DNA of 64,000 nt from Escherichia coli (GCF_041248615.1 NZ_CP158426.1), one strand, 5' to 3'. Shown: positions 7,123 through 31,136, counted from the first letter of the stretch. The notes: generated by a model from the letters alone, not told the origin. Made by a program: numbers and translations.

Positions 7123-7161
7123 AAACGCCTCTGTCAGAAATGATGGGGGCGTTTTTATTTT
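7123..7161 (+). terminator. putative rho-independent terminator of cysJIH
   Basis: 7-bp stem AAACGCC/GGCGTTT followed by TTTTTATTTT, 18 nt after the cysH stop. Confidence 0.4.
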
Positions 7162-7369
7162 GCGAGCAGCATTCCTGATTTTAAACGTGAACGCCGCTGG
7201 AAGAATTATCAGGTATAGAATGGCGTTGGGTGCTTGAGGCTGTCTGGCGTTAAGCATTCGCGAGGTTCCAGATGGACAAAAGCCCCAGGCGATATTTCTA
7301 TCAACCTGAGGCCAGCGTTCGAACCTAAGCAATTCGAATGTTAGTCTCTTCTTTGCAGGGAGGCAAGAC

Positions 7370-7522
7370 ATGCTGACAAAATATGCCCTTGTGGCAATCA
7401 TCGTACTGTGTTGTACAGTACTGGGATTCACGCTGATGGTAGGCGACTCGTTGTGTGAGTTGAGTATCAGAGAACGTGGTATGGAGTTTAAGGCAGTTCT
7501 CGCTTACGAATCGAAGAAGTAG
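7370..7522 (+). CDS. hokX: Hok/Gef-family small membrane toxin (type I toxin-antitoxin)
   Basis: 50-aa [53 protein letters not shown]: hydrophobic helix plus conserved C-terminal Cys/Glu pattern typical of Hok; GGAGG RBS; below the 60-aa cutoff of the ORF track. Confidence 0.7.
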
Positions 7523-7528
7523 CCACCA

Positions 7529-7548
7529 CGCGGGGGTAAAACCCCGCG
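7529..7548 (+). terminator. GC stem-loop at 3' end of the hokX transcript
   Basis: Perfect 7-bp stem CGCGGGG/CCCCGCG with 6-nt loop immediately after the hokX stop; no strong T-run, so it may be an mRNA-stability element rather than a terminator. Confidence 0.35.
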
Positions 7549-7555
7549 TATTGAA

Positions 7556-7716
7556 TTGTGATGGTTTGGTCTCCTGCACCCTTTTTTAATTTATATTGTT
7601 TATGTGAATATTATGCCTATGTTTATTATTTATATATATTACTGATGAAAATTATTTGATTATTCATAATGTAAATATTTTATTGAACGATATATATCAC
7701 AGATAATTTTTAATAT
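7556..7716 (+). promoter_or_regulatory. strongly AT-rich cas3 upstream/promoter region (candidate H-NS-silenced region)
   Basis: About 160 bp of very AT-rich sequence directly upstream of the cas3 ATG; promoter elements not individually resolved. Confidence 0.35.
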
Positions 7717-10416
7717 ATGCGTAAATATCCTTTAAGTTTACTGAAGGATAAAAATATTGTGACTTTTTTTGATTTCTGGGGAAAAACCCGACGCGGCGAG
7801 AAAGACGGGGGCGACGACTATCACCTTCTTTGCTGGCATTCGCTGGATGTAGCCGCGATGGGCTATTTAATGGTTAAAAGCAATTGCTTCGGACTGGCTG
7901 ACTATTTTCGTCAATTAGAGATTTCTGACAAGGAACAGGCGGCTCAATTTTTCGCCTGGTTGTTGTGCTGGCACGATACTGGTAAATTTGCCCGCTCATT
8001 TCAGCAACTTTACCTGCACCCGAAACTCAGGGTTCCGGAAGGTGCTAGAAAAAATTACGAAAAAATCTCTCATTCAACGCTGGGCTACTGGTTGTGGCAT
8101 CATTATTTAAGTGAATGTCAGGAGTTACTTCCTTCCTCTTCACTCTCTCCCCGCAAACTTACACGTGTAATAGCGATGTGGATGCCCATAACTACCGGGC
8201 ATCATGGTCGCCCGCCTGACCGTATTGATGAACTGGATAATTTTCTGCCTGAAGACAAAGCTGCCGCGCGAGATTTTCTTCTTGAAATCAAACCACTGTT
8301 TCCGCTCATAGAGATCCCCGCATTCTGGGATGATGATGAGGGCATTGAACTTATAAAACACCTTTCCTGGTATATCTCTGCAACCGTCGTGCTCGCAGAC
8401 TGGACGGGTTCGTCAACGCGATTTTTTCCACGCGTCGCACACCCAATGGATATTAAAGGTTACTGGCAGAAAACTTTAGTTCAGGCTCAAAACGCCTTAA
8501 CCGTCTTTCCTCTAAAAGCAAAAGTCGCGCCTTTCACCGGAATTAATACGCTGTTTCCTTTTATTGAGAATCCGACACCGTTACAGCAAAAGGTGCTGGA
8601 TCTGGATATCAGCCAGCCAGGGCCACAGTTATTTATTCTGGAAGATGTGACTGGCGCAGGTAAAACGGAAGCGGCGCTTATCCTGGCGCACAGGTTGATG
8701 GCTGCGGGTAAAGCGCAGAGTTTGTTTTTTGGCCTGCCAACAATGGCAACGGCCAATGCCATGTACGATCGACTGGTCAAAACCTGGCTTGCTTTCTATT
8801 CGCCAGAGTCCCGCCCCAGCCTGGTGCTGGCACACAGTGCCCGAACATTAATGGACCGCTTTAATGAATCACTCTGGTCCGGTGATTTAGTCGGGTCAGA
8901 AGAACCGGATGAACAAACGTTCAGTCAGGGATGTGCGGCCTGGTTTGCCGACAGTAACAAGAAGGCGCTACTGGCTGAAATTGGCGTCGGCACGCTGGAT
9001 CAGGCGATGATGGCGGTGATGCCGTTCAAACATAATAATGTGCGGCTTCTGGGACTGAGTAACAAAATCCTGCTGGCTGATGAGATCCATGCCTGTGACG
9101 CTTACATGTCATGCATTCTTGAAGGGCTGATCGAGCGGCAGGCGCGTGGCGGAAACAGCGTCATTTTGCTTTCTGCCACGTTATCTCAACAGCAGTGCGA
9201 CAAACTCGTTGCTGCCTTTGCGCGTGGTACAGAGGGCCAGCAAGAAGCTCCGTTCCTGGAAAAGGATGATTACCCCTGGCTGACGCACGTTACGAAATCC
9301 GATGTGCATTCACACCGGGTAGCGACGCGCAAAGACGTTGAGCGTAGCGTGAGCGTGGGTTGGCTTCATAGCGAACAAGAATGTATTGCGCGTATCGAAT
9401 CGGCAGTAAGTCAGGGGAAATGCATCGCCTGGATCCGGAATTCTGTCGATGACGCTATTAAGGTTTATCGTCAGTTGCTTGCCCGCGGCGTCATTCCTGC
9501 TTCCAGCCTTTCTCTTTTTCATAGCCGCTTTGCTTTTAGCGATCGCCAGCGAATTGAAACGGAAACGCTGGCACGCTTCGGTAAAAGTTGTAGTTTACAG
9601 AGATCATCACAAGTCATTGTTTGTACACAAGTAATTGAACAAAGTGTGGATATTGACCTGGACGAAATGATCTCCGACCTGGCCCCTGTTGATTTGCTGA
9701 TCCAGCGAGCGGGGCGATTACAGCGGCATATCCGCGATATTAATGGTCAGTTAAAGCGTGACGGAAAAGACGAGCGTTCTCCTCCTGAATTGCTGATTCT
9801 GGCCCCCGTCTGGGACGACTCTCCGGGTGATGAATGGTTTGGCAGAGCCATGCGTAACAGTGCATATGTCTACCCCGATCATGGGCGAATCTGGCTGACG
9901 CAGCGTGTGCTGCGTCAGCAAGGCGCTATTCAGATGCCACACTCAGCCCGGCTTCTGATTGAATCAGTCTACGGTGAGGACGTGGTAATGGCGGAAGGGT
10001 TTGCCCGCAGCGAGCAGGAGCAAGTGGGCAAATATTACTGCGATCGCGCAATGGCTAAAAAGTTTGTCCTGAACTTCAAGCCTGGCTATGCCGCCAATAT
10101 CAACGATTACCTTCCGGAAAAGCTGTCGACACGTCTGGCGGAGGAGTCTGTTTCCCTGTGGCTGGCTACCTGTATTGCCAGTGTGGTGAAGCCTTATGCC
10201 AACGGTGCTCACGCATGGGAAATGAGCGTTGTCAGAGTGCGTCGAAGCTGGTGGAAAAAACATCGGGATGAGTTTTCTTTACTGGAAGGGGAAGCGTTCA
10301 GGCAGTGGTGCATTGAACAGCGGAAAGATCCGGAGATGGCAAACGTGATTTTAGTTACCGATGACGAAAGTTGCGGGTATTCGGCTATGGAAGGATTGAC
10401 TGGCAAGGTTGGTTGA
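7717..10416 (+). CDS. cas3: Cas3 HD-nuclease/helicase, type I-E
   Basis: 899 aa; HD region near N-terminus (LCWHDTGKF), helicase Walker A (TGAGKTEAAL) and DEIH box (LLADEIHACD); position between cysH and cse1; N-terminus unlike K-12 YgcB as I recall it. Confidence 0.9.
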   Translation: MRKYPLSLLKDKNIVTFFDFWGKTRRGEKDGGDDYHLLCWHSLDVAAMGYLMVKSNCFGLADYFRQLEISDKEQAAQFFAWLLCWHDTGKFARSFQQLYLHPKLRVPEGARKNYEKISHSTLGYWLWHHYLSECQELLPSSSLSPRKLTRVIAMWMPITTGHHGRPPDRIDELDNFLPEDKAAARDFLLEIKPLFPLIEIPAFWDDDEGIELIKHLSWYISATVVLADWTGSSTRFFPRVAHPMDIKGYWQKTLVQAQNALTVFPLKAKVAPFTGINTLFPFIENPTPLQQKVLDLDISQPGPQLFILEDVTGAGKTEAALILAHRLMAAGKAQSLFFGLPTMATANAMYDRLVKTWLAFYSPESRPSLVLAHSARTLMDRFNESLWSGDLVGSEEPDEQTFSQGCAAWFADSNKKALLAEIGVGTLDQAMMAVMPFKHNNVRLLGLSNKILLADEIHACDAYMSCILEGLIERQARGGNSVILLSATLSQQQCDKLVAAFARGTEGQQEAPFLEKDDYPWLTHVTKSDVHSHRVATRKDVERSVSVGWLHSEQECIARIESAVSQGKCIAWIRNSVDDAIKVYRQLLARGVIPASSLSLFHSRFAFSDRQRIETETLARFGKSCSLQRSSQVIVCTQVIEQSVDIDLDEMISDLAPVDLLIQRAGRLQRHIRDINGQLKRDGKDERSPPELLILAPVWDDSPGDEWFGRAMRNSAYVYPDHGRIWLTQRVLRQQGAIQMPHSARLLIESVYGEDVVMAEGFARSEQEQVGKYYCDRAMAKKFVLNFKPGYAANINDYLPEKLSTRLAEESVSLWLATCIASVVKPYANGAHAWEMSVVRVRRSWWKKHRDEFSLLEGEAFRQWCIEQRKDPEMANVILVTDDESCGYSAMEGLTGKVG

Positions 10417-10513
10417 GATGCCTGCGACAGGGCTCTCTGAATAGTTGATACACCGAAAAGGATGGAATGATGGACAACCGACCTAGGATGGTCTTTTTTA
10501 CGAGAGGATGCGT

Positions 10514-12076
10514 ATGAACTCGTTTTCACTTCTGACAACCCCGTGGTTGCCCGTTCGTTATAAAGACGGAACGACAGGCAAACTGGCGCCTGTCGATCTG
10601 GCGGATGAAAATGTTGTCGATATTGCTGCGCCACGGGCAGATCTCCAGGGAGCGGCATGGCAGTTTTTGCTGGGGCTACTACAAACCAGCTTTGCGCCAA
10701 AAGATCATCGTCGTTGGGATGATATCTGGGAAGACGGACTGGAATCTGAAAAGCTACGGGAAGCATTGCTGTCCTTAGAACACGCTTTCCAGTTTGGGCC
10801 AGATTCCCCTTCATTTATGCAGGATTTCGAGGCGCTCACAGGAGATAAAGTTCAGGTCGCTTCGCTACTGCCTGAGATTCCCGGCGCTCAAACAACGAAG
10901 TTTAATAAAGACCACTTTATCAAGCGTGGTGTAACGGAATACCTGTGCCCACATTGTTCTGCGTTAGCTCTGTTCTCCCTACAGTTAAATGCGCCGTCAG
11001 GTGGTAAAGGCTACCGCACCGGTTTACGCGGCGGTGGGCCGATGACCACTCTGATTGAATTACAGGAATATCAGGGCAATCAACAAACGCCCTTGTGGCG
11101 CAAACTGTGGCTCAATGTGATGCCGCAGGACGAAGCCGACTTACCGCTACCCAAAAAATTTGACGATCTGGTTTTCCCCTGGCTTGGCCCGACGCGTACC
11201 AGCGAACTGGCCGGTGCGGTGGTAACCGATGATCAGGTTAATAAACTCCAGGCGTACTGGGGAATGCCGCGGCGTATTCGTATTGATTTTAATACCACGA
11301 CAGTCGGCAACTGCGATATTTGCGGCGAGCAGAACGACGCGCTCCTGAGCCTGATGACGACCAAAAATTACGGCGCGAATTATGCCATGTGGCAGCATCC
11401 CTTAACGCCTTACCGTGTACCCCTTAAAGAGGGCGGCGAGTTTTACTCGGTCAAACCACAACCAGGCGGTTTAATCTGGCGCGACTGGTTAGGCCTTATC
11501 GAAACGGGTAAATCAGAAAACAATACGGAACTTCCCGCGCTGGTGGTGAAACTCTTTAATGCCAGCAGTCTCAAGCAGGCAAAAGTGGGCCTGTGGGGAT
11601 TTGGTTATGATTTTGACAACATGAAAGCGCGCTGTTGGTACGAACACCATTTTCCGCTGCTGCTCGATAAAAAAGAAGGCCAGATACCGAAGCTGCGGCT
11701 GGCTGCGCAAACGGCTTCACGGATTCTGAGTCTGTTACGGAGTGCATTGAAAGAAGCGTGGTTCTCCGATCCAAAAGGTGCACGGGGTGATTTCAGTTTT
11801 GTGGATATCGACTTCTGGAACAAAACTCAGCATCGCTTCCTGAGGTTAGTGCGCCACATTGAAGAAGGTCAGGATGCGGATGAATTACTCAGCAAATGGC
11901 AAAAGGAAATTTGGTTATTCGCGCGTCAGGATTTTGACGAGCGTGTCTTCACCAATCCATATGAGCCCGTTGATTTGAAACGCGTCATGACCGCGCGCAA
12001 GAAATATTTTACAACATCGGCGGAGAAGCAAAATGCTAAAGCCGCCAGGGAGAAAAAGCAGGAGGCTGCTGAATGA
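10514..12076 (+). CDS. casA: Cascade large subunit Cse1 (CasA/Cas8e)
   Basis: About 520 aa ORF first in the Cascade operon; ORF track starts at 10508 but the second ATG (10514) has better GAGAGG spacing. Confidence 0.8.
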   Translation: MNSFSLLTTPWLPVRYKDGTTGKLAPVDLADENVVDIAAPRADLQGAAWQFLLGLLQTSFAPKDHRRWDDIWEDGLESEKLREALLSLEHAFQFGPDSPSFMQDFEALTGDKVQVASLLPEIPGAQTTKFNKDHFIKRGVTEYLCPHCSALALFSLQLNAPSGGKGYRTGLRGGGPMTTLIELQEYQGNQQTPLWRKLWLNVMPQDEADLPLPKKFDDLVFPWLGPTRTSELAGAVVTDDQVNKLQAYWGMPRRIRIDFNTTTVGNCDICGEQNDALLSLMTTKNYGANYAMWQHPLTPYRVPLKEGGEFYSVKPQPGGLIWRDWLGLIETGKSENNTELPALVVKLFNASSLKQAKVGLWGFGYDFDNMKARCWYEHHFPLLLDKKEGQIPKLRLAAQTASRILSLLRSALKEAWFSDPKGARGDFSFVDIDFWNKTQHRFLRLVRHIEEGQDADELLSKWQKEIWLFARQDFDERVFTNPYEPVDLKRVMTARKKYFTTSAEKQNAKAAREKKQEAAE

Positions 12077-12609
12077 GTATTGTAAAAGAGGAGCACAAAG
12101 CCACGCTGCGTAAATGGCACGAAGAGTTGCAGGAAAAACGCGGCAATCGTGCCAGTCTGCGGCGTAGCACAACGGTTAATGATGTTTGTCTGTCAGAAGG
12201 GTTTCGTTCTCTGCTGATGCAGACCCACACTTTGTGGAAAATTGAAGCACAAGAGTGGCGTTTTACCGCACTGGCGCTGGTCGCCGCAGTTAGCGCCAAT
12301 GTTAAAGCTATTGATGAACGGCAGCCTTTTGCCGCGCAGCTGGCGGCGGTAATGTCGGAGGGGCGTTTTACTCGCCTGTCGGCAGTAAAAACGCCTGATG
12401 ATTTACTGCGTCAGTTACGTCGCGCGGTCAAATTATTAAATGGTTCCGTCAATCTTATCTCTTTGGCAGAAGATATTTTCCGCTGGTGCCAGGAGAGCGA
12501 CGACCTGCTCAATCATCACCGCCGCCAGCAGCGGCCAACAGAATTTATCCGTATCCGCTGGGCGCTGGAATATTACCAGGCTGGCGACGCCGATAACGAA
12601 CAAAATTAA
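12073..12609 (+). CDS. casB: Cascade small subunit Cse2 (CasB)
   Basis: 178 aa; overlaps casA stop by 4 nt; position and size fit Cse2. Confidence 0.8.
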   Translation: MSIVKEEHKATLRKWHEELQEKRGNRASLRRSTTVNDVCLSEGFRSLLMQTHTLWKIEAQEWRFTALALVAAVSANVKAIDERQPFAAQLAAVMSEGRFTRLSAVKTPDDLLRQLRRAVKLLNGSVNLISLAEDIFRWCQESDDLLNHHRRQQRPTEFIRIRWALEYYQAGDADNEQN

Positions 12610-12623
12610 TAAAGGACTATCTC

Positions 12624-13679
12624 ATGACGACATTTATTCAGCTTCATTTGTTAACCGCTTACCCTGCTGCCAACCTTAACCGTGATGACACCGGTGCGCC
12701 AAAAACTGTGGTACTGGGTGGAGCAACGCGTCTGCGCGTTTCCTCACAAAGTCTGAAACGTGCGTGGCGCACTTCTGCACTTTTTGAACAGGCACTGGCG
12801 GGCCATATTGGTATTCGCAGTGGGCGTATTGCGCGTGAGGCGGCAACTATCCTGATTGAGAAAGGCATCGAAGAGAAAAAAGCCATCGAATGGGCGGCAA
12901 AAATTGCGGATTATCTTGGGAAAGCTAAAAACGACAAAAAACCAAAAGATCCGCTCACTAACGCCGAAACTGAACAGCTAGTCCATATCAGCCCGGCAGA
13001 ATTTGACGCCGTAAAAGCGCTGGCCCATCAACTGGCCGAAGAAAAGCGCGCGCCAAAAGAGGAAGATCTCGCTTTGTTACGTAAAGATCGCATGGCGGTA
13101 GATATCGCTATGTTTGGTCGTATGCTGGCGAATAAACCCGAATTTAATGTTGAAGCCGCCTGCCAGGTCGCGCATGCATTTGGTGTCAGTGAAACGATTG
13201 TCGAAGATGATTTTTTCACCGCCGTTGATGATTTGCGCCAGGCTTCTGAAGATGCCGGTGCCGGGCATCTTGGTGAAACCGGATTCGGTTCTGCGCTGTT
13301 CTACACCTATATCTGCATCGATAAAGATCTGCTGGTCGAAAACCTCGGCGGTGACGAAGCGTTAGCTAATCAGACCTTGCGCGCCTTTACGGAAGCCGCA
13401 CTTAAAGTCTCCCCAACCGGCAAACAGAACAGCTTTGCCAGCCGTGCCTACGCCTCCTGGGCGCTGGCAGAAAAAGGCACTGAACAACCACGCTCTCTGG
13501 CGGCGGCTTTCTATGAACCCATTAATGGCACCCGGCAGTTAGATGTGGCGGTGCAGCGTATTACAACGCTTCGCGAAAATATGAATACGGTCTATGAACA
13601 GAAGACCGAATGCGCAAGCTTTGACGTGATGAACAAACAGGGAAGCATGAAGGACGTGCTGGACTTTATCTGCGCGTAA
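12624..13679 (+). CDS. casC: Cascade backbone subunit Cas7e (CasC)
   Basis: 351 aa; N-terminus MTTFIQLHLLTAYPAANLNRDDTGAPK resembles the Cas7e N-terminus. Confidence 0.85.
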   Translation: MTTFIQLHLLTAYPAANLNRDDTGAPKTVVLGGATRLRVSSQSLKRAWRTSALFEQALAGHIGIRSGRIAREAATILIEKGIEEKKAIEWAAKIADYLGKAKNDKKPKDPLTNAETEQLVHISPAEFDAVKALAHQLAEEKRAPKEEDLALLRKDRMAVDIAMFGRMLANKPEFNVEAACQVAHAFGVSETIVEDDFFTAVDDLRQASEDAGAGHLGETGFGSALFYTYICIDKDLLVENLGGDEALANQTLRAFTEAALKVSPTGKQNSFASRAYASWALAEKGTEQPRSLAAAFYEPINGTRQLDVAVQRITTLRENMNTVYEQKTECASFDVMNKQGSMKDVLDFICA

Positions 13680-13689
13680 GGGGCGGCTA

Positions 13690-14436
13690 ATGAGCCAATA
13701 TTTGATTTTTCAGCTTCATGGGCCAATGGCATCCTGGGGCGTCGATGCCCCCGGCGAAGTGCGTCATACCCATGAACTGCCTTCGCGCTCAGCATTGCTG
13801 GGGCTGCTGGCTGCCGGGGTAGGGATTCGGCGTGATGATACCGAACGATTAAACGCGTTTAACCGCCACTATTCACTGGTGGTTTGCGCCAGCCGTAACC
13901 CGCGCTGGGCACGGGATTATCACACGGTCCAGATGCCAAAAGAGGTGCGTAAAGCGCGTTATTTCAGCCGTCGCGAAGAGTTGAGCGCCCCTGATCTTCT
14001 GAGCGCGATTATCTCCCGGCGCGACTACTACACCGATGCCTGGTGGATGGTGGCGGTGGCAACAACCCCCGATGCGCCTTACAGGCTTGAACAGTTGCAG
14101 GACGGTTTACGTCATCCGGTTTTTCCGCTTTATCTGGGGCGAAAAAGTCATCCGCTGGCGTTACCACTTGCGCCGTTACTGCTCGAAGGCAACGCGTCTG
14201 ATGTCTTACGTAACGCATACCAACAGTATCAGGATAGTTTCCGCGAACTGAAAGTCTCACTCCCGAAACTTCAGGATGAATGCTGGTGGGAAGGGGAACA
14301 CGACGGCCTGGTCGCGAGCAAAATATTACGTCGCCGGGATGTTCCTTTAAATCGTCAGCAGTGGCTGTTTGGGGAACGCACCATCAATCAGGGGCCGTGG
14401 CTCAGCAAGGAGGAACCATGTACCTCTCAAGAATAA
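13690..14436 (+). CDS. casD: Cascade subunit Cas5e (CasD)
   Basis: 248 aa; N-terminus MSQYLIFQLHGPMASWG parallels K-12 CasD MRSYLILRLAGPMQAWG. Confidence 0.85.
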   Translation: MSQYLIFQLHGPMASWGVDAPGEVRHTHELPSRSALLGLLAAGVGIRRDDTERLNAFNRHYSLVVCASRNPRWARDYHTVQMPKEVRKARYFSRREELSAPDLLSAIISRRDYYTDAWWMVAVATTPDAPYRLEQLQDGLRHPVFPLYLGRKSHPLALPLAPLLLEGNASDVLRNAYQQYQDSFRELKVSLPKLQDECWWEGEHDGLVASKILRRRDVPLNRQQWLFGERTINQGPWLSKEEPCTSQE

Positions 14437-15064
14437 CCTTACATACCGGCCAGCTTTCGCCTGCGCAGTTGCTGCATCTGGTGGATCGCGGTGAATATGT
14501 AATGCATCAGTGGCTGTGGGATCTTTTTCCTGGCGGCAAAGAAAGGCAATTTCTTTATCGTCGGGAAGAACTCCAGGGGGCGTTTCGCTTTTTTGTCCTG
14601 TCGCAGGAACGCCCGGCGGAAAGTGATATTTTCACCATCGAATGCCGACCATTTGCGCCAGAGTTGCGTACCGGACAATCCCTTTGTTTCAACCTGCGGG
14701 CGAATCCAACAATTTGTAAAGCGGGCAAACGCCACGACTTGCTGATGGAGGCGAAACGGCAGGTGAGGGGGCAGGTGGAAGGAAGTGATGTCTGGTTGCA
14801 TCAACAACAGGCGGCGCTGGACTGGCTGGCAGCGCAGGGGGAAAGAAGCGGTTTTACACTACTGGATACCTCGGTCGATGCCTACCGACAACAGCAACTG
14901 CGGCGGGAAAACTCCCGGCAACTGATCCAGTTCAGTAGCGTGGATTATACGGGGATGCTTACGGTCACCGATCCTGGGTTATTTCTGCAACGTCTGAGCC
15001 AGGGGTATGGCAAAAGCCGCGCGTTCGGCTGTGGTCTGATGCTGATCAAACCCGGAGCAGAGGC

Positions 15065-15068
<4 letters not shown>
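14418..15068 (+). CDS. casE: Cas6e (CasE) pre-crRNA endoribonuclease
   Basis: ORF 14280..15068 over-extended; start placed at MYLSRITLHTGQ (14418) with AGGAGG RBS at 14409-14414; 216 aa. Confidence 0.85.
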
Positions 15069-16278
<1,210 letters not shown>

Positions 16279-16374
16279 GTTATCTGTTCTTTAAAAATAA
16301 GGAAATGTTTTAATTTAGTTGGTAGATTGTTGATGCGGAATAAATTTTTTTAAAAACAGTTATGTATGCTTAGT
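16279..16374 (+). promoter_or_regulatory. CRISPR leader
   Basis: AT-rich 96 bp between cas2 stop and first repeat; leader-proximal end of the array. Confidence 0.55.
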
Positions 16375-17074
16375 GTGTTCCCCGCGTCAGCGGGGATAAA
16401 CCGGACTCAGTTTTTCCCTGCTGACCCTCCGAAGGGTGTTCCCCGCGTCAGCGGGGATAAACCGCCATGCCGCGCCAGCTCTGCGAAACAGCCCGCGTGT
16501 TCCCCGCGTCAGCGGGGATAAACCGATCCAAAGATAGTCGCCCCGATTGCCAAATTGGTGTTCCCCGCGTCAGCGGGGATAAACCGACGGTATTGTTCAG
16601 ATCCTGGCTTGCCAACAGGTGTTCCCCGCGTCAGCGGGGATAAACCGGCGGCACTAACGTGATAATCACGATCAATTATGTGTTCCCCGCGTCAGCGGGG
16701 ATAAACCGTGACGGTCCGAAAAAAGTTGGCTGAAGAAATTGTGTTCCCCGCGTCAGCGGGGATAAACCGGTTATTGCGTTTTCCTCACCTGCGGCGAGTC
16801 CGTGTTCCCCGCGTCAGCGGGGATAAACCGCATTCCGTGCAGCGGTCTGAATAATTGCCGCGGTGTTCCCCGCGTCAGCGGGGATAAATCGAGTAACGAC
16901 GAAAAAATACAGGCACGGGCCAGGTGTTCCCCGCGTCAGCGGGGATAAACCGATCCCCGCAGGTATCGCGCAGCTATCGATCGAGTGTTCCCCGCGTCAG
17001 CGGGGATAAACCGGACGCACTGGATGCGATGATGGACATCACTTGGAGTTCCCCGCCCCTGCGGTAGAACTCCC
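16375..17074 (+). CRISPR. type I-E CRISPR array: 12 repeats (29 nt), 11 spacers (all 32 nt), 61-nt period
   Basis: Repeat GTGTTCCCCGCGTCAGCGGGGATAAACCG starting at 16375, 16436, 16497, 16558, 16619, 16680, 16741, 16802, 16863, 16924, 16985; repeat 9 has C->T at 16889; degenerate terminal repeat GAGTTCCCCGCCCCTGCGGTAGAACTCCC at 17046-17074. Confidence 0.97.
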
Positions 17075-19293: not shown

Positions 19294-20721
19294 ATGAACA
19301 CCGCACTTGCACAACAAATCGCCAATGAAGGCGGCGTCGAAGCCTGGATGATTGCGCAACAACATAAAAGCCTGCTGCGTTTTCTGACCTGTGGTAGCGT
19401 CGATGACGGCAAAAGTACCCTGATTGGTCGTCTGCTGCACGATACCCGCCAAATCTACGAAGATCAGCTCTCATCGCTGCATAACGACAGTAAGCGTCAC
19501 GGCACCCAGGGCGAAAAGCTGGATCTGGCTCTGCTGGTGGACGGCCTGCAAGCTGAGCGCGAACAGGGCATCACCATTGACGTGGCTTACCGTTATTTCT
19601 CTACCGAGAAGCGTAAATTTATTATCGCCGATACCCCAGGGCACGAGCAGTACACTCGCAATATGGCGACTGGCGCATCGACATGTGAACTGGCGATCTT
19701 ACTGATCGATGCCCGTAAAGGCGTGCTCGATCAAACCCGTCGTCACAGTTTTATCTCCACACTGTTGGGGATCAAACATCTGGTCGTGGCGATCAACAAA
19801 ATGGATCTGGTGGGTTACAGTGAAGAGACGTTCACCCGTATTCGCGAAGATTATCTGACGTTTGCCGGGCAGCTGCCGGGTAATCTGGATATCCGCTTTG
19901 TGCCGCTCTCTGCACTGGAAGGCGACAACGTGGCTTCGCAAAGTGAAAGTATGCCGTGGTACAGCGGTCCGACACTGCTCGAAGTGCTGGAAACCGTGGA
20001 GATCCAGCGAGTGGTGGATGCCCAGCCAATGCGCTTCCCGGTGCAGTACGTTAATCGCCCGAATCTCGATTTTCGTGGCTACGCCGGAACGCTGGCATCC
20101 GGTCGAGTGGAAGTCGGGCAACGTGTCAAAGTGCTGCCCTCTGGTGTGGAATCAAACGTCGCGCGGATCGTGACTTTTGATGGCGATCGCGAAGAAGCCT
20201 TTGCCGGAGAAGCGATCACCCTAGTGCTGACGGATGAGATCGACATCAGCCGTGGCGATCTGCTGCTGGCGGCAGACGAAGCGTTACCGGCTGTGCAGAG
20301 CGCGTCGGTGGATGTGGTATGGATGGCGGAACAGCCGCTTTCCCCAGGCCAGAGTTACGACATCAAAATTGCCGGTAAGAAGACACGTGCTCGTGTTGAT
20401 GGCATTCGTTATCAGGTTGATATTAATAACCTTACCCAACGCGAAGTTGAAAACCTGCCGCTGAACGGCATCGGGCTGGTGGATCTCACTTTTGACGAGC
20501 CACTGGTGTTAGATCGTTATCAGCAAAATCCGGTTACCGGTGGGCTGATTTTTATCGATCGCCTGAGCAATGTGACCGTGGGTGCCGGTATGGTGCACGA
20601 GCCAGTTAGCCTGGCAACTGCTGCGCCATCTGAATTCAGTGCATTCGAACTGGAATTGAATGCCCTGGTTCGTCGCCACTTTCCGCACTGGGGCGCGCGC
20701 GATTTGTTGGGGGATAAATAA
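19294..20721 (+). CDS. cysN: sulfate adenylyltransferase subunit 1 (GTPase)
   Basis: 475 aa; GTP-binding motifs [18 protein letters not shown]. Confidence 0.95.
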
Positions 20722-21326
20722 TGGCGCTGCATGACGAAAACGTCGTCTGGCATAGCCATCCGGTCACTGTGCAACAACGCGAGCTACACCACGGTCATCG
20801 TGGTGTAGTGCTGTGGTTTACCGGCCTCTCCGGGTCCGGTAAATCAACGGTCGCCGGGGCGCTGGAGGAGGCGTTACATAAACTCGGCGTCAGTACGTAT
20901 CTGCTGGATGGCGACAATGTTCGCCACGGATTATGCAGCGATCTCGGTTTTAGCGATGCCGATCGTAAAGAGAATATCCGTCGCGTCGGTGAAGTGGCGA
21001 ATTTGATGGTTGAAGCCGGACTGGTGGTGCTGACCGCATTCATCTCGCCACACCGCGCCGAACGCCAGATGGTTCGTGAACGCGTAGGAGAAGGGCGCTT
21101 TATCGAAGTGTTTGTCGATACGCCGCTGGCGATTTGCGAAGCCCGCGATCCAAAAGGCTTATATAAGAAAGCGCGTGCCGGTGAACTGCGCAACTTTACG
21201 GGAATAGATTCCGTTTACGAAGCGCCTGAATCGGCAGAAATTCATCTCAATGGTGAACAATTAGTAACAAATTTGGTACAGCAATTATTAGATCTGTTGA
21301 GACAGAACGATATTATCAGATCCTGA
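20721..21326 (+). CDS. cysC: adenylylsulfate (APS) kinase
   Basis: 201 aa; P-loop GLSGSGKST. Confidence 0.95.
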
Positions 21327-21375
21327 GACACCACCGGGTTTCCATGCCCGGTTCGTCAAAGTAACAGGATCAAAT

Positions 21376-21699
21376 ATGCGTAATAGCCATAACATTACAC
21401 TAACAAATAACGACAGCCTTACTGAGGATGAAGAAACCACATGGTCACTGCCTGGTGCTGTGGTCGGTTTTATCTCCTGGTTATTTGCGCTGGCGATGCC
21501 GATGTTGATTTATGGCTCTAACACGCTGTTTTTCTTTATCTACACCTGGCCTTTCTTTCTGGCACTGATGCCTGTCGCGGTAGTGGTGGGGATTGCGCTG
21601 CATTCATTGATGGACGGAAAGCTACGCTACAGTATTGTTTTCACCCTGGTGACAGTAGGCATTATGTTTGGCGCACTGTTTATGTGGCTACTGGGCTAA
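21376..21699 (+). CDS. ygbE: small inner-membrane protein (DUF3561 family)
   Basis: 107 aa with hydrophobic segments; position between cysC and ftsB. Confidence 0.8.
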   Translation: MRNSHNITLTNNDSLTEDEETTWSLPGAVVGFISWLFALAMPMLIYGSNTLFFFIYTWPFFLALMPVAVVVGIALHSLMDGKLRYSIVFTLVTVGIMFGALFMWLLG

Positions 21700-21892
21700 T
21701 TTGTACTTTCTTGTCTCCTCTGTTCATAATTCAAACCGTAACTAATAATGAGATTATGTTCTGCACGCCCTGGGTATACGTAACAATGGACAAATGTGGT
21801 ACATTTGCCCGCGTTGTCGCGGTATCCCCAACAGAGGATGTAGAGTCGTCTTCGGATGCATGGGATGATGATGCCGTTTTTCAGGGGGCAGG

Positions 21893-22204
21893 ATGGGTAA
21901 ACTAACGCTGCTGTTGCTGGCTATTCTGGTCTGGCTACAGTATTCGCTGTGGTTCGGTAAGAACGGTATACATGACTATACCCGCGTCAATGATGATGTG
22001 GCGGCACAGCAAGCTACAAACGCGAAACTTAAAGCGCGAAACGATCAACTTTTTGCCGAAATTGACGATCTCAATGGCGGCCAGGAGGCGCTCGAAGAGC
22101 GTGCGCGTAATGAACTCAGCATGACCAGGCCGGGCGAAACTTTTTATCGTCTGGTGCCTGACGCGTCGAAGCGCGCACAGTCTGCGGGGCAAAACAATCG
22201 ATAA
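21893..22204 (+). CDS. ftsB: cell division protein FtsB
   Basis: 103 aa; N-terminal TM segment plus coiled coil. Confidence 0.9.
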
Positions 22205-22222
22205 ATCAGCCCGGGAATTAAC

Positions 22223-22933
22223 ATGGCAACCACTCATTTGGATGTTTGCGCCGTGGTTCCGGCGGCCGGATTTGGCCGTCGAATGCAAACGGAATGTCCT
22301 AAGCAATATCTCTCAATCGGTAATCAAACCATTCTTGAACACTCGGTGCATGCGCTGCTGGCGCATCCCCGGGTGAAACGTGTCGTCATTGCCATAAGTC
22401 CTGGCGATAGCCGTTTTGCACAACTTCCTCTGGCGAATCATCCGCAAATCACCGTTGTAGATGGCGGTGATGAGCGTGCCGATTCGGTGCTGGCAGGTCT
22501 GAAAGCCGCTGGCGACGCGCAGTGGGTATTGGTGCATGACGCCGCTCGTCCTTGTCTGCATCAGGATGACCTCGCGCGATTGTTGGCGTTGAGCGAAACC
22601 AGCCGCACGGGGGGGATCCTCGCCGCACCAGTGCGCGATACGATGAAACGTGCCGAACCGGGCAAAAATGCCATTGCTCATACCGTTGATCGCAACGGCT
22701 TATGGCACGCGCTGACGCCGCAATTTTTCCCTCGCGAGCTGTTACATGACTGCCTGACGCGCGCTCTAAATGAAGGCGCTACCATTACCGACGAAGCCTC
22801 GGCGCTGGAATATTGCGGATTCCATCCGCAGTTGGTCGAAGGCCGCGCGGATAACATTAAAGTCACGCGACCGGAAGATTTGGCACTGGCCGAGTTTTAC
22901 CTCACCCGAACCATCCATCAGGAGAATACATAA
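22223..22933 (+). CDS. ispD: 2-C-methyl-D-erythritol 4-phosphate cytidylyltransferase
   Basis: 236 aa; N-terminal [11 protein letters not shown] motif; ispDF operon. Confidence 0.93.
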
Positions 22934-23412
22934 TGCGAATTGGACACGGTTTTGACGTACACGCCTTTGGCGGTGAAGGCCCAATTATCATTGGTGGCGT
23001 ACGCATTCCTTACGAAAAAGGATTGCTGGCGCATTCTGATGGCGACGTGGCGCTCCATGCGTTGACCGATGCATTGCTTGGCGCGGCGGCGCTGGGGGAT
23101 ATCGGCAAACTGTTCCCGGATACCGATCCGGCATTTAAAGGTGCCGATAGCCGCGAGCTGCTACGCGAAGCCTGGCGTCGTATTCAGGCGAAGGGTTATA
23201 CCCTTGGCAACGTCGATGTCACTATCATCGCTCAGGCACCGAAGATGTTGCCGCACATTCCACAAATGCGCGTGTTTATTGCCGAAGATCTCGGCTGCCA
23301 TATGGATGATGTTAACGTGAAAGCCACTACTACGGAAAAACTTGGATTTACCGGACGTGGGGAAGGGATTGCCTGTGAAGCGGTGGCGCTACTCATTAAG
23401 GCAACAAAATGA
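22933..23412 (+). CDS. ispF: 2-C-methyl-D-erythritol 2,4-cyclodiphosphate synthase
   Basis: 159 aa; [12 protein letters not shown]...SDGDV motif. Confidence 0.93.
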
Positions 23413-24438
23413 TTGAGTTTGATAATCTCACTTACCTCCACGGTAAACCGCAAGGCACCGGGCTGCTGAAAGCCAATCCGGAAGACTTTGTGGTGGTGGA
23501 AGATTTGGGCTTTGAGCCTGATGGTGAAGGTGAGCATATTCTGGTTAGAATCCTCAAAAACGGCTGCAATACCCGTTTTGTGGCGGATGCACTGGCGAAA
23601 TTCCTGAAAATTCATGCCCGTGAAGTCAGCTTCGCTGGGCAAAAAGACAAACATGCTGTTACGGAACAGTGGTTATGCGCTCGCGTGCCGGGCAAGGAAA
23701 TGCCCGATCTGAGCGCCTTTCAACTGGAAGGCTGCCAGGTGCTGGAGTATGCGCGGCACAAGCGCAAGCTGCGTTTAGGCGCGCTGAAAGGTAACGCCTT
23801 TACCTTGGTACTACGCGAAGTGAGCAATCGCGATGACGTTGAACAACGTCTGATCGATATTTGCGTAAAAGGTGTACCGAACTACTTCGGTGCCCAACGT
23901 TTTGGGATTGGCGGTAGCAACTTGCAGGGCGCGCTGCGCTGGGCGCAAACCAATACTCCGGTGCGCGATCGCAATAAACGGAGTTTTTGGTTGTCGGCAG
24001 CCCGCAGTGCGTTGTTTAATCAGATTGTTGCTGAGCGCCTCAAAAAAGCAGACGTTAATCAAGTTGTTGACGGCGATGCGCTACAATTAGCCGGACGTGG
24101 TAGCTGGTTTGTCGCAACCACCGAAGAACTGGCGGAATTACAGCGTCGCGTCAACGATAAAGAGCTAATGATAACCGCCGCATTGCCGGGCAGTGGCGAA
24201 TGGGGAACTCAGCGTGAAGCGTTGGCATTCGAACAAGCAGCTGTCGCCGCAGAAACTGAATTACAAGCCTTACTGGTGCGCGAAAAAGTTGAAGCCGCGC
24301 GTAGAGCGATGCTGCTGTATCCGCAACAATTAAGCTGGAACTGGTGGGATGACGTCACCGTAGAAATCCGTTTCTGGCTTCCGGCGGGAAGTTTTGCAAC
24401 CAGCGTTGTCAGGGAACTTATCAACACAACAGGTGATT

Positions 24439-24458
<20 letters not shown>
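23409..24458 (+). CDS. truD: tRNA pseudouridine(13) synthase
   Basis: 349 aa; overlaps ispF stop. Confidence 0.9.
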
Positions 24459-25820
<1,362 letters not shown>

Positions 25821-25959
25821 AACGTGAGGAAATACCTGGATTTTTCCTGGTTATTTTGCCGCAGGTCAGCGTATCGTGAACATCTTTTCCAGTGTTCAGT
25901 ATGGTGCCTTGCACGGTAATTATGTCACTGGTTATTAACCAATTTTTCCTGGGGGATAA

Positions 25960-27099
25960 ATGAGCGCGGGAAGCCCAAAATTCACCGTTCGCCGCATTGC
26001 GGCTTTGTCACTGGTTTCGCTATGGCTGGCAGGCTGTTCTGACACTTCAAATCCACCGGCACCGGTCAGCTCCGTTAATGGCAATGCGCCTGCAAATACC
26101 AATTCTGGTATGTTGATTACGCCGCCGCCGAAAATGGGAACGACGTCTACAGCGCAGCAACCGCAAATTCAGCCGGTACAGCAGCCACAAATTCAGGCTA
26201 CTCAACAACCGCAAATCCAGCCAGTACAGCCAGTAGCTCAGCAGCCGGTACAGATGGAAAACGGACGCATCGTCTACAACCGTCAGTATGGGAACATTCC
26301 GAAAGGCAGTTATAGCGGCAGTACCTATACCGTGAAAAAAGGCGACACACTTTTCTATATCGCCTGGATTACTGGCAACGATTTCCGTGACCTTGCTCAG
26401 CGCAACAATATTCAGGCACCATACGCGCTGAACGTCGGTCAGACCTTACAGGTGGGTAATGCTTCCGGTACGCCAATCACTGGCGGAAATGCCATTACCC
26501 AGGCCGACGCAGCAGAGCAAGGAGTTGTGATCAAGCCTGCACAAAATTCCACCGTTGCTGTTGCGTCGCAACCGACAATTACGTATTCTGAGTCTTCGGG
26601 TGAACAGAGTGCTAACAAAATGTTGCCGAACAACAAGCCAACTGCGACCACGGTCACAGCGCCTGTAACGGTACCAACAGCAAGCACAACCGAGCCGACT
26701 GTCAGCAGTACATCAACCAGTACGCCTATCTCCACCTGGCGCTGGCCGACTGAGGGCAAAGTGATCGAAACCTTTGGCGCTTCTGAGGGGGGCAACAAGG
26801 GGATTGATATCGCAGGCAGCAAAGGACAGGCAATTATCGCGACCGCAGATGGCCGCGTTGTTTATGCCGGTAACGCGCTGCGCGGCTACGGTAATCTGAT
26901 TATCATCAAACATAATGATGATTACCTGAGTGCCTACGCCCATAACGACACAATGCTGGTCCGGGAACAACAAGAAGTGAAGGCGGGGCAAAAAATAGCA
27001 ACCATGGGTAGCACCGGAACCAGTTCAACACGCTTGCATTTTGAAATTCGTTACAAGGGGAAATCCGTAAACCCGCTGCGTTATTTGCCGCAGCGATAA
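25960..27099 (+). CDS. nlpD: murein hydrolase activator lipoprotein NlpD (LysM + M23 domains)
   Basis: 379 aa; lipobox LAGCS, LysM region, C-terminal M23 domain; directly upstream of rpoS. Confidence 0.93.
26155..26226 (+). repeat. in-frame 24-nt tandem repeat x3 within nlpD (QQPQIQPV-like linker)
   Basis: cagcaaccgcaaattcagccggta / cagcagccacaaattcaggctact / caacaaccgcaaatccagccagta. Confidence 0.8.
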
Positions 27100-28154: not shown

Positions 28155-28170
28155 GTAAGCATCTGTCAGA

Positions 28171-28207
28171 AAGGCCAGTCTCAAGCGAGGCTGGCCTTTT
28201 TCTTTTG
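28171..28207 (+). terminator. rho-independent terminator after rpoS
   Basis: Stem AGGCCAG/CTGGCCT with loop, followed by TTTTTCTTTT. Confidence 0.6.
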
Positions 28208-28274
28208 TTTGGGAAGTCGGTGTGTTTTGTCGCCTGGATAAGACTCGTCAGCGTCCTACCCGGCAATCAGCATC

Positions 28275-28682
28275 CTATTTGCTCATCATCTTGCGCACCA
28301 ACTGCATAAACAGCTCCTTCTCTTCTGCACTCAAACGCCCCAAAAATTCCTCATCCACACTGTCACCAATGGGGATCGCCGCAGCAAGTACCTTTTCTCC
28401 TTCGGCAGTCAGCCAGACAAAGCGACGCCGCTTGTCAGCGGCGTCATGTTCACGTCTGACTAAGCCACGATTTTCCATTCTTGCCAACATTTCTGCCAGC
28501 GTTGCTTTGGTGCTGACTGCTGCTTCTATCAGTGCCACCTGTTCGATACCAGGCTTATCAGCAATGGCGCGCATCACCGCGTACTGTGGTTTGGTGAGGT
28601 TAGGTAACTCGTGCTGCCAGCGAGCCGTGTGCTGCTGAAAAAGCTGTCGTAACTGATGGAACGCTTTATTTCGTAACGCCAT
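28275..28682 (-). CDS. MarR-family (SlyA-like) transcriptional regulator
   Basis: ORF 28275..28715; winged-helix MarR-like region; start placed at MALRNKAF (28682), which has a GGAG RBS; divergent from ecdB. Confidence 0.8.
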   Translation of the reverse strand: MALRNKAFHQLRQLFQQHTARWQHELPNLTKPQYAVMRAIADKPGIEQVALIEAAVSTKATLAEMLARMENRGLVRREHDAADKRRRFVWLTAEGEKVLAAAIPIGDSVDEEFLGRLSAEEKELFMQLVRKMMSK

Positions 28683-28798
28683 GTAAACTCCGGGCAAACT
28701 ATCTGCCGCTATCATAGCGGTTTTTCAGTGACGAAGAAGATGTTGTTACTTTTCAGTGCTTGCCGCGATGAAAACAGAGGCGTATTTTAATAATAACG

Positions 28799-28810
28799 TT
28801 CGTATACGAA
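28799..28810. promoter_or_regulatory. perfect 12-bp palindrome TTCGTATACGAA; candidate MarR-type operator at the ecdB promoter
   Basis: Self-complementary 12-mer 19 nt upstream of the ecdB ATG in the divergent regulator-ecdB intergenic region. Confidence 0.35.
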
Positions 28811-28828
28811 TAATTAAGAGAATAAACA

Positions 28829-29422
28829 ATGAGACTGATCGTCGGGATGACAGGGGCTACCGGTGCGCCTCTTGGGGTGGCATTACTGCAAGCGCTGCGG
28901 GAGATGCCGAATGTCGAGACTCATCTGGTGATGTCGAAGTGGGCGAAAACCACCATTGAACTGGAAACGCCTTACAGCGCTCGCGATGTTGCTGCCCTCG
29001 CAGACTTCAGTCATAACCCGGCGGATCAGGCGGCGACCATCTCCTCAGGTTCCTTTCGTACCGACGGCATGATCGTTATTCCGTGCAGTATGAAAACGCT
29101 CGCCGGTATCCGTGTCGGTTACGCCGATGGCCTGGTAGGGCGCGCGGCGGACGTCGTGCTCAAAGAAGGCCGCAAACTAGTGCTGGTGCCGCGTGAAATG
29201 CCGCTTAGCACAATCCATCTCGAAAATATGCTCGCACTTTCGCGCATGGGCGTGGCGATGGTGCCGCCGATGCCTGCCTTTTATAACCATCCCGAAACGG
29301 TAGATGACATTGTCCACCACGTGGTAGCCCGCGTGCTGGATCAATTTGGCCTCGAACATCCTCACGCCAGGCGCTGGCAAGGATTGCCGCAGGCCCGGAA
29401 TTTTTCTCAGGAGAATGAATAA
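28829..29422 (+). CDS. ecdB: UbiX-family flavin prenyltransferase (aka pad1)
   Basis: 197 aa; UbiX/Pad1-like N-terminus MRLIVGMTGATGAPLGVALL; 1-nt overlap with ecdC. Confidence 0.85.
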   Translation: MRLIVGMTGATGAPLGVALLQALREMPNVETHLVMSKWAKTTIELETPYSARDVAALADFSHNPADQAATISSGSFRTDGMIVIPCSMKTLAGIRVGYADGLVGRAADVVLKEGRKLVLVPREMPLSTIHLENMLALSRMGVAMVPPMPAFYNHPETVDDIVHHVVARVLDQFGLEHPHARRWQGLPQARNFSQENE

Positions 29423-30849: not shown

Positions 30850-30859
30850 GGAGAACAAG

Positions 30860-31096
30860 ATGATTTGTCCACGTTGTGCTGATGAACAGATTGAAGTGAT
30901 GGCGAAATCGCCGGTAAAAGATGTCTGGACAGTCTATCAGTGCCAGCATTGCCTCTATACCTGGCGCGATACCGAACCGCTTCGCCGCACCAGCCGCGAA
31001 CATTACCCGGAAGCGTTTCGTATGACGCAGAAAGACATTGATGACGTGCCAATGGTGCCGAGCATTCCGCCGCTGCTGGCGGAAGGTAAGCGTTAA
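30860..31096 (+). CDS. ecdD: small zinc-ribbon subunit of phenolic acid decarboxylase (BsdD/VdcD-like)
   Basis: 78 aa; CPRC...CQHC pair typical of the small D subunit. Confidence 0.75.
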   Translation: MICPRCADEQIEVMAKSPVKDVWTVYQCQHCLYTWRDTEPLRRTSREHYPEAFRMTQKDIDDVPMVPSIPPLLAEGKR

Positions 31097-31104
31097 TAAA
31101 AAGT

Positions 31105-31132
31105 GCCGGGTAGTGGCTTTGCTTTACCCGGC
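31105..31132. terminator. hairpin between convergent ecdD and pphB
   Basis: Perfect 8-bp stem GCCGGGTA/TACCCGGC with 12-nt loop, then CTCATTACTTTATTTTAT. Confidence 0.45.
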
Positions 31133-31136
31133 CTCA

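Follow-up and report, generated by a model that had tools for sequence, protein, structure and literature searches.

Type I-E Variants of E. coli and Layout of the Locus

Two variants of type I-E CRISPR-Cas, E1 and E2, have been described in E. coli (Almendros et al. 2014, mBio, PMC3903273); the same variants were termed cas-EO (O157:H7 type) and cas-EK by Diez-Villasenor et al. (2013, RNA Biol, PMC3737337), and var. B-8552 and var. K-12 in a 2025 survey (PMC12736100). Published cas-E1 loci display the layout cysH - hok/sok - cas3...cas2 - leader - array - iap and an AWG (CWT) PAM. The type I toxin–antitoxin pair hok/sok was reported from every strain but those carrying E2, Salmonella and E. 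albertii were placed in the E1 cluster, and E2 was concluded to be a later replacement (PMC3903273). The coexistence of two variants at the iap-cysH site, the module replacement, the association with hok/sok and the PAM difference were thus published in 2013–2014 and again in 2025. As a discovery, the locus described here therefore has little weight; it is rather a reminder that K-12 is unrepresentative.

We analyzed a stretch of 64,000 nucleotides of E. coli DNA (NZ_CP158426.1; hereafter the window), which matches the chromosome of E. coli NRZ14408 (NZ_LT599825.1), a KPC-2-positive clinical isolate, at 100% identity. Positions 7717–17074 contain cas3-casA-casB-cas7-cas5-cas6e-cas1-cas2, followed by a 96-nt AT-rich leader and then by the array. 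This is almost certainly an intact type I-E CRISPR-Cas locus of the cas-E1/var. B-8552 variant, located at its native site between cysH-hok/sok and iap of NRZ14408, a reading based on gene content, intactness, catalytic residues, variant identity, frequency, spacer targets, and PAMs. The cas-E1 locus is already known and is the ordinary majority form in E. coli; it seems atypical only by comparison with the laboratory strain K-12, in which the rarer replacement version is present. The features are as follows:

7228..7522, + strand: hok/sok type I toxin–antitoxin, between cysH and cas3, which marks the E1 arrangement
7228-7385, + strand: sok (Rfam, 111.7 bits)
7370-7522, + strand: Hok ORF (RefSeq Hok/Gef family protein; NCBIfam Hok family matches)
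7523..7716, + strand: AT-rich intergenic region upstream of cas3 (27% GC), without K-12 counterpart
7717..10416, + strand: cas3, 899 aa, HD nuclease fused to SF2 helicase
10514..12076, + strand: casA/cse1, 520 aa, large Cascade subunit
12073..12609, + strand: casB/cse2, 178 aa, small Cascade subunit
12624..13679, + strand: cas7e/casC, 351 aa, Cascade backbone
13690..14436, + strand: cas5e/casD, 248 aa
14418..15068, + strand: cas6e/casE, 216 aa, pre-crRNA endoribonuclease by family
15065..15988, + strand: cas1e, 307 aa, integrase by family
15985..16278, + strand: cas2e, 97 aa
16279..16374, + strand: leader (24% GC)
16375..17074, + strand: CRISPR array (CRISPR2.1/CRISPR1), in which 11 spacers of 32 nt separate 12 repeats of 29 nt

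The region at 7523..7716 is presumed to be the promoter/regulatory region of cas3. An in-frame ATG at 10508 provides an alternative start for casA, which would give a protein of 522 aa. Only sok was matched in the Rfam scan, which reported no CRISPR repeat family.

Intactness of the Cas Genes and Type I-E Membership

All eight Cas proteins cover NCBIfam type I-E models nearly end to end, with scores above the curated cut-offs. In particular, the signatures of cse1/casA (TIGR02547, 609 bits for a cut-off of 70) and cse2/casB (TIGR02548, 103 bits for a cut-off of 28.5) were matched over their full length, and both the HD (TIGR01596) and the helicase core (TIGR01587) models scored above cut-off in Cas3. 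Membership in type I-E is further supported by the presence, in canonical order, of cas7e (TIGR01869, 448 bits), cas5e (TIGR01868, above cut-off), cas6e (TIGR01907, 288 bits), cas1e (TIGR03638, 381 bits), and cas2e (TIGR01873, above cut-off). The array likewise has the type I-E form, that is, 29-nt hairpin repeats, 32-nt spacers, and an AT-rich leader downstream of cas2.

The catalytic residues checked in Cas3, Cas1, Cas2, and Cas6e are all conserved: H86/D87 of Cas3 correspond to H74/D75 in K-12, the Walker A K316 to K320, the DEIH box D455-E456-x-H458 to the K-12 DEVH box, and S486/T488 of the SAT motif to S483/T485; His30 of Cas6e aligns with the catalytic His20 of K-12, and E141, H208, D218, and D221 are conserved in Cas1. 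A previous reading of this DNA, made from the sequence only, had described the cas gene order as intact, with no visible frameshift, and the locus as complete. Both statements hold, as we found no internal stop in any of the eight ORFs and neither frameshift nor premature stop, and RefSeq flags none of the genes as a pseudogene.

Assignment to cas-E1 and Frequency in E. coli

Several markers assign the locus to E1. The published E1 primers (PMC3903273) match exactly, cysH-F at 7150-7170 and cas3E1-R at 7798-7817, and primer cas3E2-R has no site in the window within three mismatches. hok/sok is present between cysH and cas3, and all 11 full repeats begin with GTGTT (AACAC on the other strand), as in the E1 type A repeat. 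Over its entire length the leader equals that of NZ_OW967178.1; two more E1 strains, compared only in the last 27 nt, show no difference there. The genes measure 2700/1563/537/1056/747/651/924 nt and have GC contents of 50–55%, in agreement with Table 1 of PMC12736100 for var. B-8552. Near-identity of Cas3 and CasABCDE to the K-12 type (cas-E2/cas-EK) was not found (24.5–38%). The locus differs from published cas-E1 loci in strain-level detail only, namely its set of 11 spacers and a T in the hairpin loop of all full repeats.

Of 5426 complete E. coli genomes, 2420 contain E1 at a coverage of at least 80%, and 1115 contain the K-12 type; a megablast search with the K-12 cas3-casE region matched 1187 genomes. 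The E1 cas3-cas6e region shows 95–99% nucleotide identity in 2202 genomes and 100% in NZ_OW967178.1. From these counts, and from PMC3903273, E1 is the commoner and probably the primary variant, and K-12 the outlier.

Divergence from K-12 and Boundaries of the Replaced Module

The sequence-only reading had also claimed that the cas genes differ strongly from those of K-12 while the flanks are K-12-like. The second part is confirmed by global amino acid identities to K-12 of about 99% (CysH 99.6%, Iap 98.8%, CysD 99.7%). The first holds for Cas3 (30.9%; 29% by BLASTP) and for the Cascade subunits CasA (24.5%), CasB (27.8%), Cas7 (31.0%), Cas5 (37.8%), and Cas6e (31.2%) but not for Cas1 (84.9%) and Cas2 (85.1%), whose divergence is moderate. 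Because none of these pairwise alignments exceeded 90% identity, the identification of a divergent variant stands, and the proposal that two highly divergent I-E cas sets occupy the iap-cysH site, the one here being the non-K-12 set, agrees with the three published studies (PMC3903273; PMC3737337; PMC12736100). Consistently, the K-12-type equivalog models remained below cut-off (NF007248 for Cas3, 424 bits vs. 569; NF007247 for CasA, 104 vs. 576), and over cas3-cas6e we found no similarity between E1 and the K-12 type at the megablast level, K-12-type strains matching only from cas1 onward.

Alignment to K-12 locates the edges of the divergent segment. Upstream, the identity of about 99% extends as far as the hok ATG, near 7373, and no further, and the K-12 junction carries a truncated hok/sok remnant, which shows that the deletion happened on the K-12 side. 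Downstream, the leader aligns with the K-12 leader but has diverged; the last spacer, S11, is common to K-12 at 30 of 32 positions, and so is the terminal repeat. The swapped module thus extends through the leader into the leader-proximal repeats and spacers, with hok removed in K-12. The whole cas3-to-leader module has almost certainly been replaced in the K-12 lineage by a lower-GC E2 module, with loss of hok and retention of the trailer end of the array, and this replacement is the reason for the strong difference from K-12. The cas genes have a GC content of 51.5% here versus 44.8% in K-12, that of the window being 53.2%.

The two variants share their subtype, gene order, chromosomal site, 29-nt repeat hairpin, and 32-nt spacers, along with a homologous leader, the trailer spacer and terminal repeat, and Cas1 and Cas2 at 85% identity. 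On the other hand, K-12 has a deletion of hok, which is intact here, the cas3-casA intergenic spacer measures 97 nt versus 414 nt, and the repeat starts with GTG instead of GAG. They also differ in the reported acquisition motif, which is CWT for the E1 variant and CTT for K-12 (PMC3737337).

Repeats and History of the Array

The array has a period of 61 nt. The repeat, GTGTTCCCCGCGTCAGCGGGGATAAACCG, is exact in ten copies; one further copy carries a single change (AAATCG, at 16863-16891). The last repeat is degenerate, as is normal for I-E arrays. Eleven repeat matches were observed versus none expected in shuffled sequences, and the 11 spacers read previously were recovered letter for letter. 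The repeat is predicted to fold into a hairpin with a 7-bp stem and a GUCA loop (−15.2 kcal/mol), isoenergetic with that of the K-12 repeat, the C-to-U change relative to K-12 being located in the loop. We considered this loop T as a rare lineage marker and rejected it, this repeat form being present in 1561 of 5426 genomes.

None of the spacers is unique to this strain, for each recurs in one or more other genomes: NZ_OW967178.1 has S1 and S2, and bird and human strains from several continents have S3–S11. Relative to its relatives, the array is shorter through internal deletions, units having been lost and not gained. It is thus a deletion derivative of longer arrays and shows no sign of recent adaptation. 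The trailer spacer S11 is nearly universal in E. coli; spacer searches gave about 4260 chromosomal places when S11 and S4 were included and 52 after removing both, as well as 601 plasmid places, which come mainly from S4.

Spacer Targets and PAM

Three spacers (S4, S9, and S10) have identifiable targets, each protospacer being preceded by an ATG PAM. These spacers and the trailer spacer are located as follows:

16587-16618, + strand: S4, matching upfA of P1-like phage-plasmids
16892-16923, + strand: S9, matching a prophage "gateway protein" gene
16953-16984, + strand: S10, matching a prophage baseplate J gene
17014-17045, + strand: S11, trailer spacer

The upfA gene of P1-like elements contains a 100% match to S4 in 19 phage records and in about 600 plasmids; this protospacer has the PAM ATG in RCS47-like elements but ACG in the reference P1 and P7. 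S9 shows 100% identity to its target, and S10 matches at 30 of 32 positions, both targets being structural genes of prophages. The protospacer motif of E1 is CWT (AWG), within which CAT is frequent and preferred by the non-K-12 variant (PMC3737337); the ATG found at S4, S9, and S10 is CAT on the other strand.

For the remaining 8 of the 11 spacers, no protospacer was found in the collections searched. S1 and S2, the newest two, had no match in IMG/VR, in a search with every sixth position degenerate, S1–S3 and S5–S10 had none among the plasmid records of the E. coli collection, and S11 matched only other CRISPR arrays. An apparent S11 protospacer on plasmid pIOMTU792 was discarded, as it belongs to a captured copy of a CRISPR locus and is not a target. 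The search for targets, including self-targets, had been proposed together with the sequence-only reading; besides the targets of S4, S9, and S10, it showed that the spacers match the NRZ14408 chromosome at the array only. Within the window, no second copy of a spacer was found with up to ten mismatches, except for one chance match of S4 with ten. S4 was absent from those parts of the NRZ14408 plasmids (475 kb in all) that were examined. The present spacer memory thus appears to be aimed at P1-like phage-plasmids (S4) and two kinds of prophages (S9 and S10), of which the spacers would be a small but concrete record of past encounters.

Predicted Function and Activity State

Family membership and conserved residues, from which we infer expression, crRNA processing, and interference activity, suggest the following steps. 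The array would be transcribed from the AT-rich leader, and Cas6e would cleave each repeat hairpin to yield 61-nt crRNAs, with which CasA, CasB, Cas7, Cas5, and Cas6e would assemble into Cascade. Cascade would then locate DNA protospacers after an AWG PAM, here ATG, and recruit the HD nuclease and helicase Cas3, leading to target degradation. Cas1-Cas2 would add 32-nt spacers (33 nt when counting the PAM-derived G, the last base of the repeat) at the leader end. The ATG at the PAM position of all three protospacers supports this scheme indirectly.

Flanks about 99% identical to K-12 around Cas3 and Cascade proteins only 25–38% identical would, taken alone, resemble an insertion, and part of the locus is found on a conjugative plasmid elsewhere, making mobility possible. 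A recent acquisition of the cas genes by this strain or lineage, from another genus into a K-12-like backbone, is nevertheless very improbable and already largely refuted: the same variant occupies the same site in 2420 of 5426 complete genomes, its cas GC content lies near the window's, that of the K-12 set being 44.8%, the truncated hok/sok remnant places the deletion on the K-12 side, and Salmonella and E. albertii belong to the E1 cluster, E2 being the later replacement (PMC3903273). Similarly, it is hard to believe that the locus, complete as it looks, is a degenerate remnant without function. The array is shrinking, one repeat carries the AAATCG point mutation, and the terminal repeat is degenerate, but the latter is normal in I-E systems and K-12 has the same one, 10 of the 12 repeats have the same sequence and form the canonical hairpin, and the eight proteins, free of stops and frameshifts, match their models over the full length and retain the catalytic residues checked.

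The chances that the intact locus is transcriptionally silent, through H-NS or a similar factor, are by contrast evenly balanced; it would then protect the cell barely or not at all under normal conditions, persisting as a memory in slow decay. This concerns the activity state and not the identity of the locus, and it is compatible with the assignment to an intact cas-E1 system. The K-12 type I-E system is established to be silenced by H-NS, and GC content is 24–27% upstream of both cas3 and the array, the DNA upstream of cas3, at 27%, being of the kind bound by H-NS. The lack of strain-specific spacers, the loss rather than gain of units relative to relatives, and the near universality of the trailer spacer also point to silence. 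Conversely, the integrity of all eight genes and of the checked catalytic residues, and the occurrence of the variant at a coverage of at least 80% in 2420 genomes, argue for selection to keep E1. Moreover, the 97-nt cas3-casA spacer, with 48.5% GC, is unlike the 414-nt region of K-12, which contains the H-NS/LeuO-controlled Pcas, so that K-12 regulation cannot simply be transferred to this locus. A simple sigma-70 consensus scan, uninformative in that its hits were fewer than in shuffled sequence, revealed no promoter in the leader or upstream of cas3 or casA.

P1-like phage-plasmids often carry ESBL or mcr genes. It is conceivable, but in our opinion unlikely, that NRZ14408, a multidrug-resistant clinical strain, has a natively active E1 system that excludes such elements by means of S4, that the ATG-to-ACG change of the PAM represents escape, and that the majority Cascade perhaps differs from that of K-12 in regulation and PAM reading. 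To our knowledge, nearly all structural and mechanistic information on E. coli Cascade and Cas3 concerns the minority E2 variant. PDB searches with E1 CasA and Cas3 retrieved no solved E1 structure, the solved E. coli Cascades being all of the K-12 type. The best match for CasA was 4QYZ, at only E = 2e−15, and those for Cas3 were the type I-E proteins of Thermobaculum terrenum (4Q2C, E = 7e−78) and Thermobifida fusca (4QQW/6C66, E = 8e−65), which share the same HD-helicase architecture but, as distant sequences from unrelated phyla, serve as structural references only.

Architecture and Integrity of the Locus

The window is identical to positions 1184001–1248000 of the chromosome of E. coli NRZ14408 (NZ_LT599825.1; window coordinates are chromosomal coordinates minus 1184000), a strain whose assembly includes four plasmids besides the chromosome, one of the four carrying KPC-2. 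The features discussed here are:

7228–7522: hok/sok type I toxin–antitoxin locus, intact, between cysH and cas3 (Hok ORF 7370–7522, 50 aa)
7717–16278: cas3, casA, casB, cas7, cas5, cas6e, cas1 and cas2 in this order, eight ORFs, all co-oriented
directly 3′ of cas2: leader, 96 nt, 24% GC
16375–17074: CRISPR array, 3′ of the leader

A complete locus with canonical gene order, as proposed by the sequence-only reading, was confirmed: no internal stop was seen in the translations of the eight ORFs, the RefSeq annotation flags none of the cas genes as a pseudogene, and all Cas proteins score above the curated NCBIfam cut-offs, with the type I-E models covered nearly end to end. Alignment with the K-12 proteins showed that the HD motif, Walker A lysine, DExH box and motif III of Cas3, E141, H208, D218 and D221 of Cas1, E9 of Cas2 and the Cas6e histidine are conserved; these residues are catalytic according to work on K-12, whose residue numbers follow the established literature.

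The array keeps a period of 61 nt throughout. Ten of its repeats read exactly GTGTTCCCCGCGTCAGCGGGGATAAACCG, one departs from this sequence at a single position, and the terminal repeat is degenerate; a scan for the repeat pattern gave 11 occurrences, versus 0 in shuffled sequence. Its 11 spacers (S1–S11, S1 being leader-proximal) are each exactly as first read. The repeat RNA folds into a 7-bp hairpin equal to that of the K-12 repeat, the C-to-U difference being located in the tetraloop, and the loop-T form is common (1561 of the 5426 complete E. coli genomes). Repeat 9 (16863–16891) bears a single C-to-T change (…ATAAATCG), also present in NZ_OW967178.1 and not in strain A10, which is a small clonal marker.

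Divergence from K-12 and Variant Identity

Relative to K-12 (MG1655), amino-acid identity is 31% for Cas3, 24.5% for CasA, 28% for CasB, 31% for Cas7, 38% for Cas5 and 31% for Cas6e, whereas the flanking CysH, Iap and CysD are 99.6%, 98.8% and 99.7% identical. The initial impression of cas genes strongly unlike K-12 between K-12-like flanks thus holds for Cas3 and Cascade, and less so for Cas1 and Cas2 (85%). The window Cas3 and CasA do not reach the cut-offs of the K-12-specific NCBIfam equivalog models, and cas-gene GC content is 51.5% versus 44.8% in K-12. On the cysH side, nucleotide identity of about 99% breaks off at the hok ATG (window ~7373), K-12 lacking both the hok ORF and a 194-nt AT-rich region 5′ of cas3. 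The Rfam sok match spans 7228–7385 (+ strand), and K-12 retains only the upstream part, annotated sokX and ending at this ATG, which indicates that replacement of the cas module in K-12 deleted the toxin. Towards iap, the trailer and the degenerate terminal repeat are common to both, as is the final spacer at 30/32 positions; the leaders are homologous and diverged.

That two divergent I-E cas variants occur at iap–cysH, the window holding the non-K-12 one, is supported by the published record. Almendros et al. (2014; PMC3903273) described variants E1 and E2, placed the integration event inside the array, and already reported the association of hok/sok with the cas variant, hok/sok being found in every strain but E2 carriers. 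E1 is the major cluster, takes in Salmonella and E. albertii outgroups and has a mean GC content of 53.5%, whereas E2 (mean 45.6%) is made up of K-12, the majority of phylogroup A strains and E. fergusonii (PMC3903273). Their diagnostic E1 primer, cas3E1-R, matches window 7798–7817 exactly, and no site for the E2 primer was found in the window. The non-K-12 variant, or cas-EO, is tied to type A repeats and leader, with acquisition motif CWT versus CTT for K-12 (Diez-Villasenor et al. 2013; PMC3737337). Gene lengths and GC content equal those of "var. B-8552" listed in a 2025 survey (PMC12736100). Together, these results place the locus firmly in type I-E and in the E1 variant; it is an already known and ordinary feature of E. 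coli. A PDB search found no solved structure of E1 proteins, the nearest matches being K-12 CasA (E = 2e−15) and, for Cas3, Thermobaculum or Thermobifida.

Among the 5426 complete E. coli genomes, a sample skewed by, among other things, laboratory K-12 derivatives, the window cas3–cas6e segment was found at a coverage of at least 80% in 2420 and the K-12 segment in 1115. Most genomes with any match to the window segment (2202 of 2788) are 95–99% identical to it, and NZ_OW967178.1 is 100% identical. Despite the sampling bias, E1 is clearly the majority form in E. coli.

Array History

The array was compared with those of three relatives, NZ_OW967178.1 and strains A10 and CH4796 (x1–x12 being spacers of the relatives):

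Window: S1 ... S11
NZ_OW967178.1: S1 S2 x1 x2 S3 S5–S10 x3–x6 S11
A10 and CH4796: x7–x10 S3 S4 S5 x11 S6 x12 S7 ... S10 x3–x6 S11

Because the relatives hold extra units, the window array is a deletion derivative, having lost x1, x2, x11, x12 and x3–x6. Its leader-end units are not those of A10, a difference that polarised acquisition would predict. NRZ14408 has no private spacer, each one being found in another genome as well; any of S1–S3 or S5–S10 was matched in only 46 of 5426 genomes.

Spacer Targets

The spacers, concatenated, served as query against the phages of INPHARED, the plasmids of PLSDB and complete E. coli genomes. S4 (16587–16618) matches 19 phage records and about 600 plasmids; the site, 100% identical, lies within upfA, which in P1-like phage-plasmids is found beside the plasmid replicon. 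The protospacer itself is identical in P1 (NC_005856) and RCS47, and the three bases 5′ of it are ATG in RCS47-like elements (RCS47 locus L009, 60–94) versus ACG in reference P1/P7 (P1 locus L003, 1499–1533), a difference that may have arisen by drift or as an escape from targeting that depends on AWG. Two STEC genomes have a prophage "gateway protein" gene that S9 matches at 100%; for S10, the match is to a baseplate J gene of prophages in several genomes (30/32, seed intact). Both protospacers are preceded by ATG. ATG at S4, S9 and S10 fits the CAT/CWT motif of E1; AWG at all three has a chance of about (2/64)^3, and ATG in three of three cases is very unlikely to be coincidental.

The remaining spacers gave no protospacer at E ≤ 1 (phages), E ≤ 5 (plasmids) or E ≤ 1 (E. 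coli genomes), and S1 and S2, the two searched in IMG/VR, were not matched there. S11 matched nothing beyond other CRISPR arrays; it is the trailer spacer found almost universally in E. coli arrays, also in that of K-12. No self-target was found on the NRZ14408 chromosome, the strain's plasmids being covered in part for S4. In strain ECA64 (NZ_CM144250.1/NZ_OZ392456.1), which has several window spacers in common, a second matching place lies outside the array and may represent a prophage targeted by a spacer that the strain itself carries.

Possible Activity

From membership of type I-E/E1 we infer a working model in which the array would be transcribed from the leader and its repeats processed by Cas6e; Cascade would then survey DNA for AWG-flanked protospacers, Cas3 would degrade the target, and Cas1–Cas2 would add new spacers at the leader end. 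An array devoid of private spacers, a history dominated by losses and very AT-rich upstream regions are consistent with the view of E. coli I-E systems as mostly silent. The intactness of the genes across thousands of genomes argues for the system being maintained. The cas3–casA spacer measures 97 nt versus 414 nt in K-12, so that regulatory detail from K-12 should not be transferred uncritically.

Other Observations

The 293-kb conjugative IncHI2A plasmid pIOMTU792 (NZ_LC542972.1) carries casB-cas7-cas5-cas6e-cas1-cas2, a 10-spacer array and iap at 20058–26056, with protein accessions for CasB, Cas7, Cas6e, Cas1 and Cas2 equal to those of the window; cas3 and casA are absent from its PLSDB gene table, which is incomplete. 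This block adjoins ISEcp1-blaCTX-M-15 (28168–30561), interrupts a DUF6012 gene and has the look of a chromosomal segment captured through ISEcp1 read-through. Elsewhere in the window, genes for a MarR-family regulator, hydroxyarylic acid decarboxylase subunits B, C and D, and pphB lie between rpoS and mutS (28275–31793), corresponding to the known polymorphic rpoS–mutS region, and a HigB-family toxin gene with an HTH antitoxin gene lies between hycI and ascB (49613–50340).
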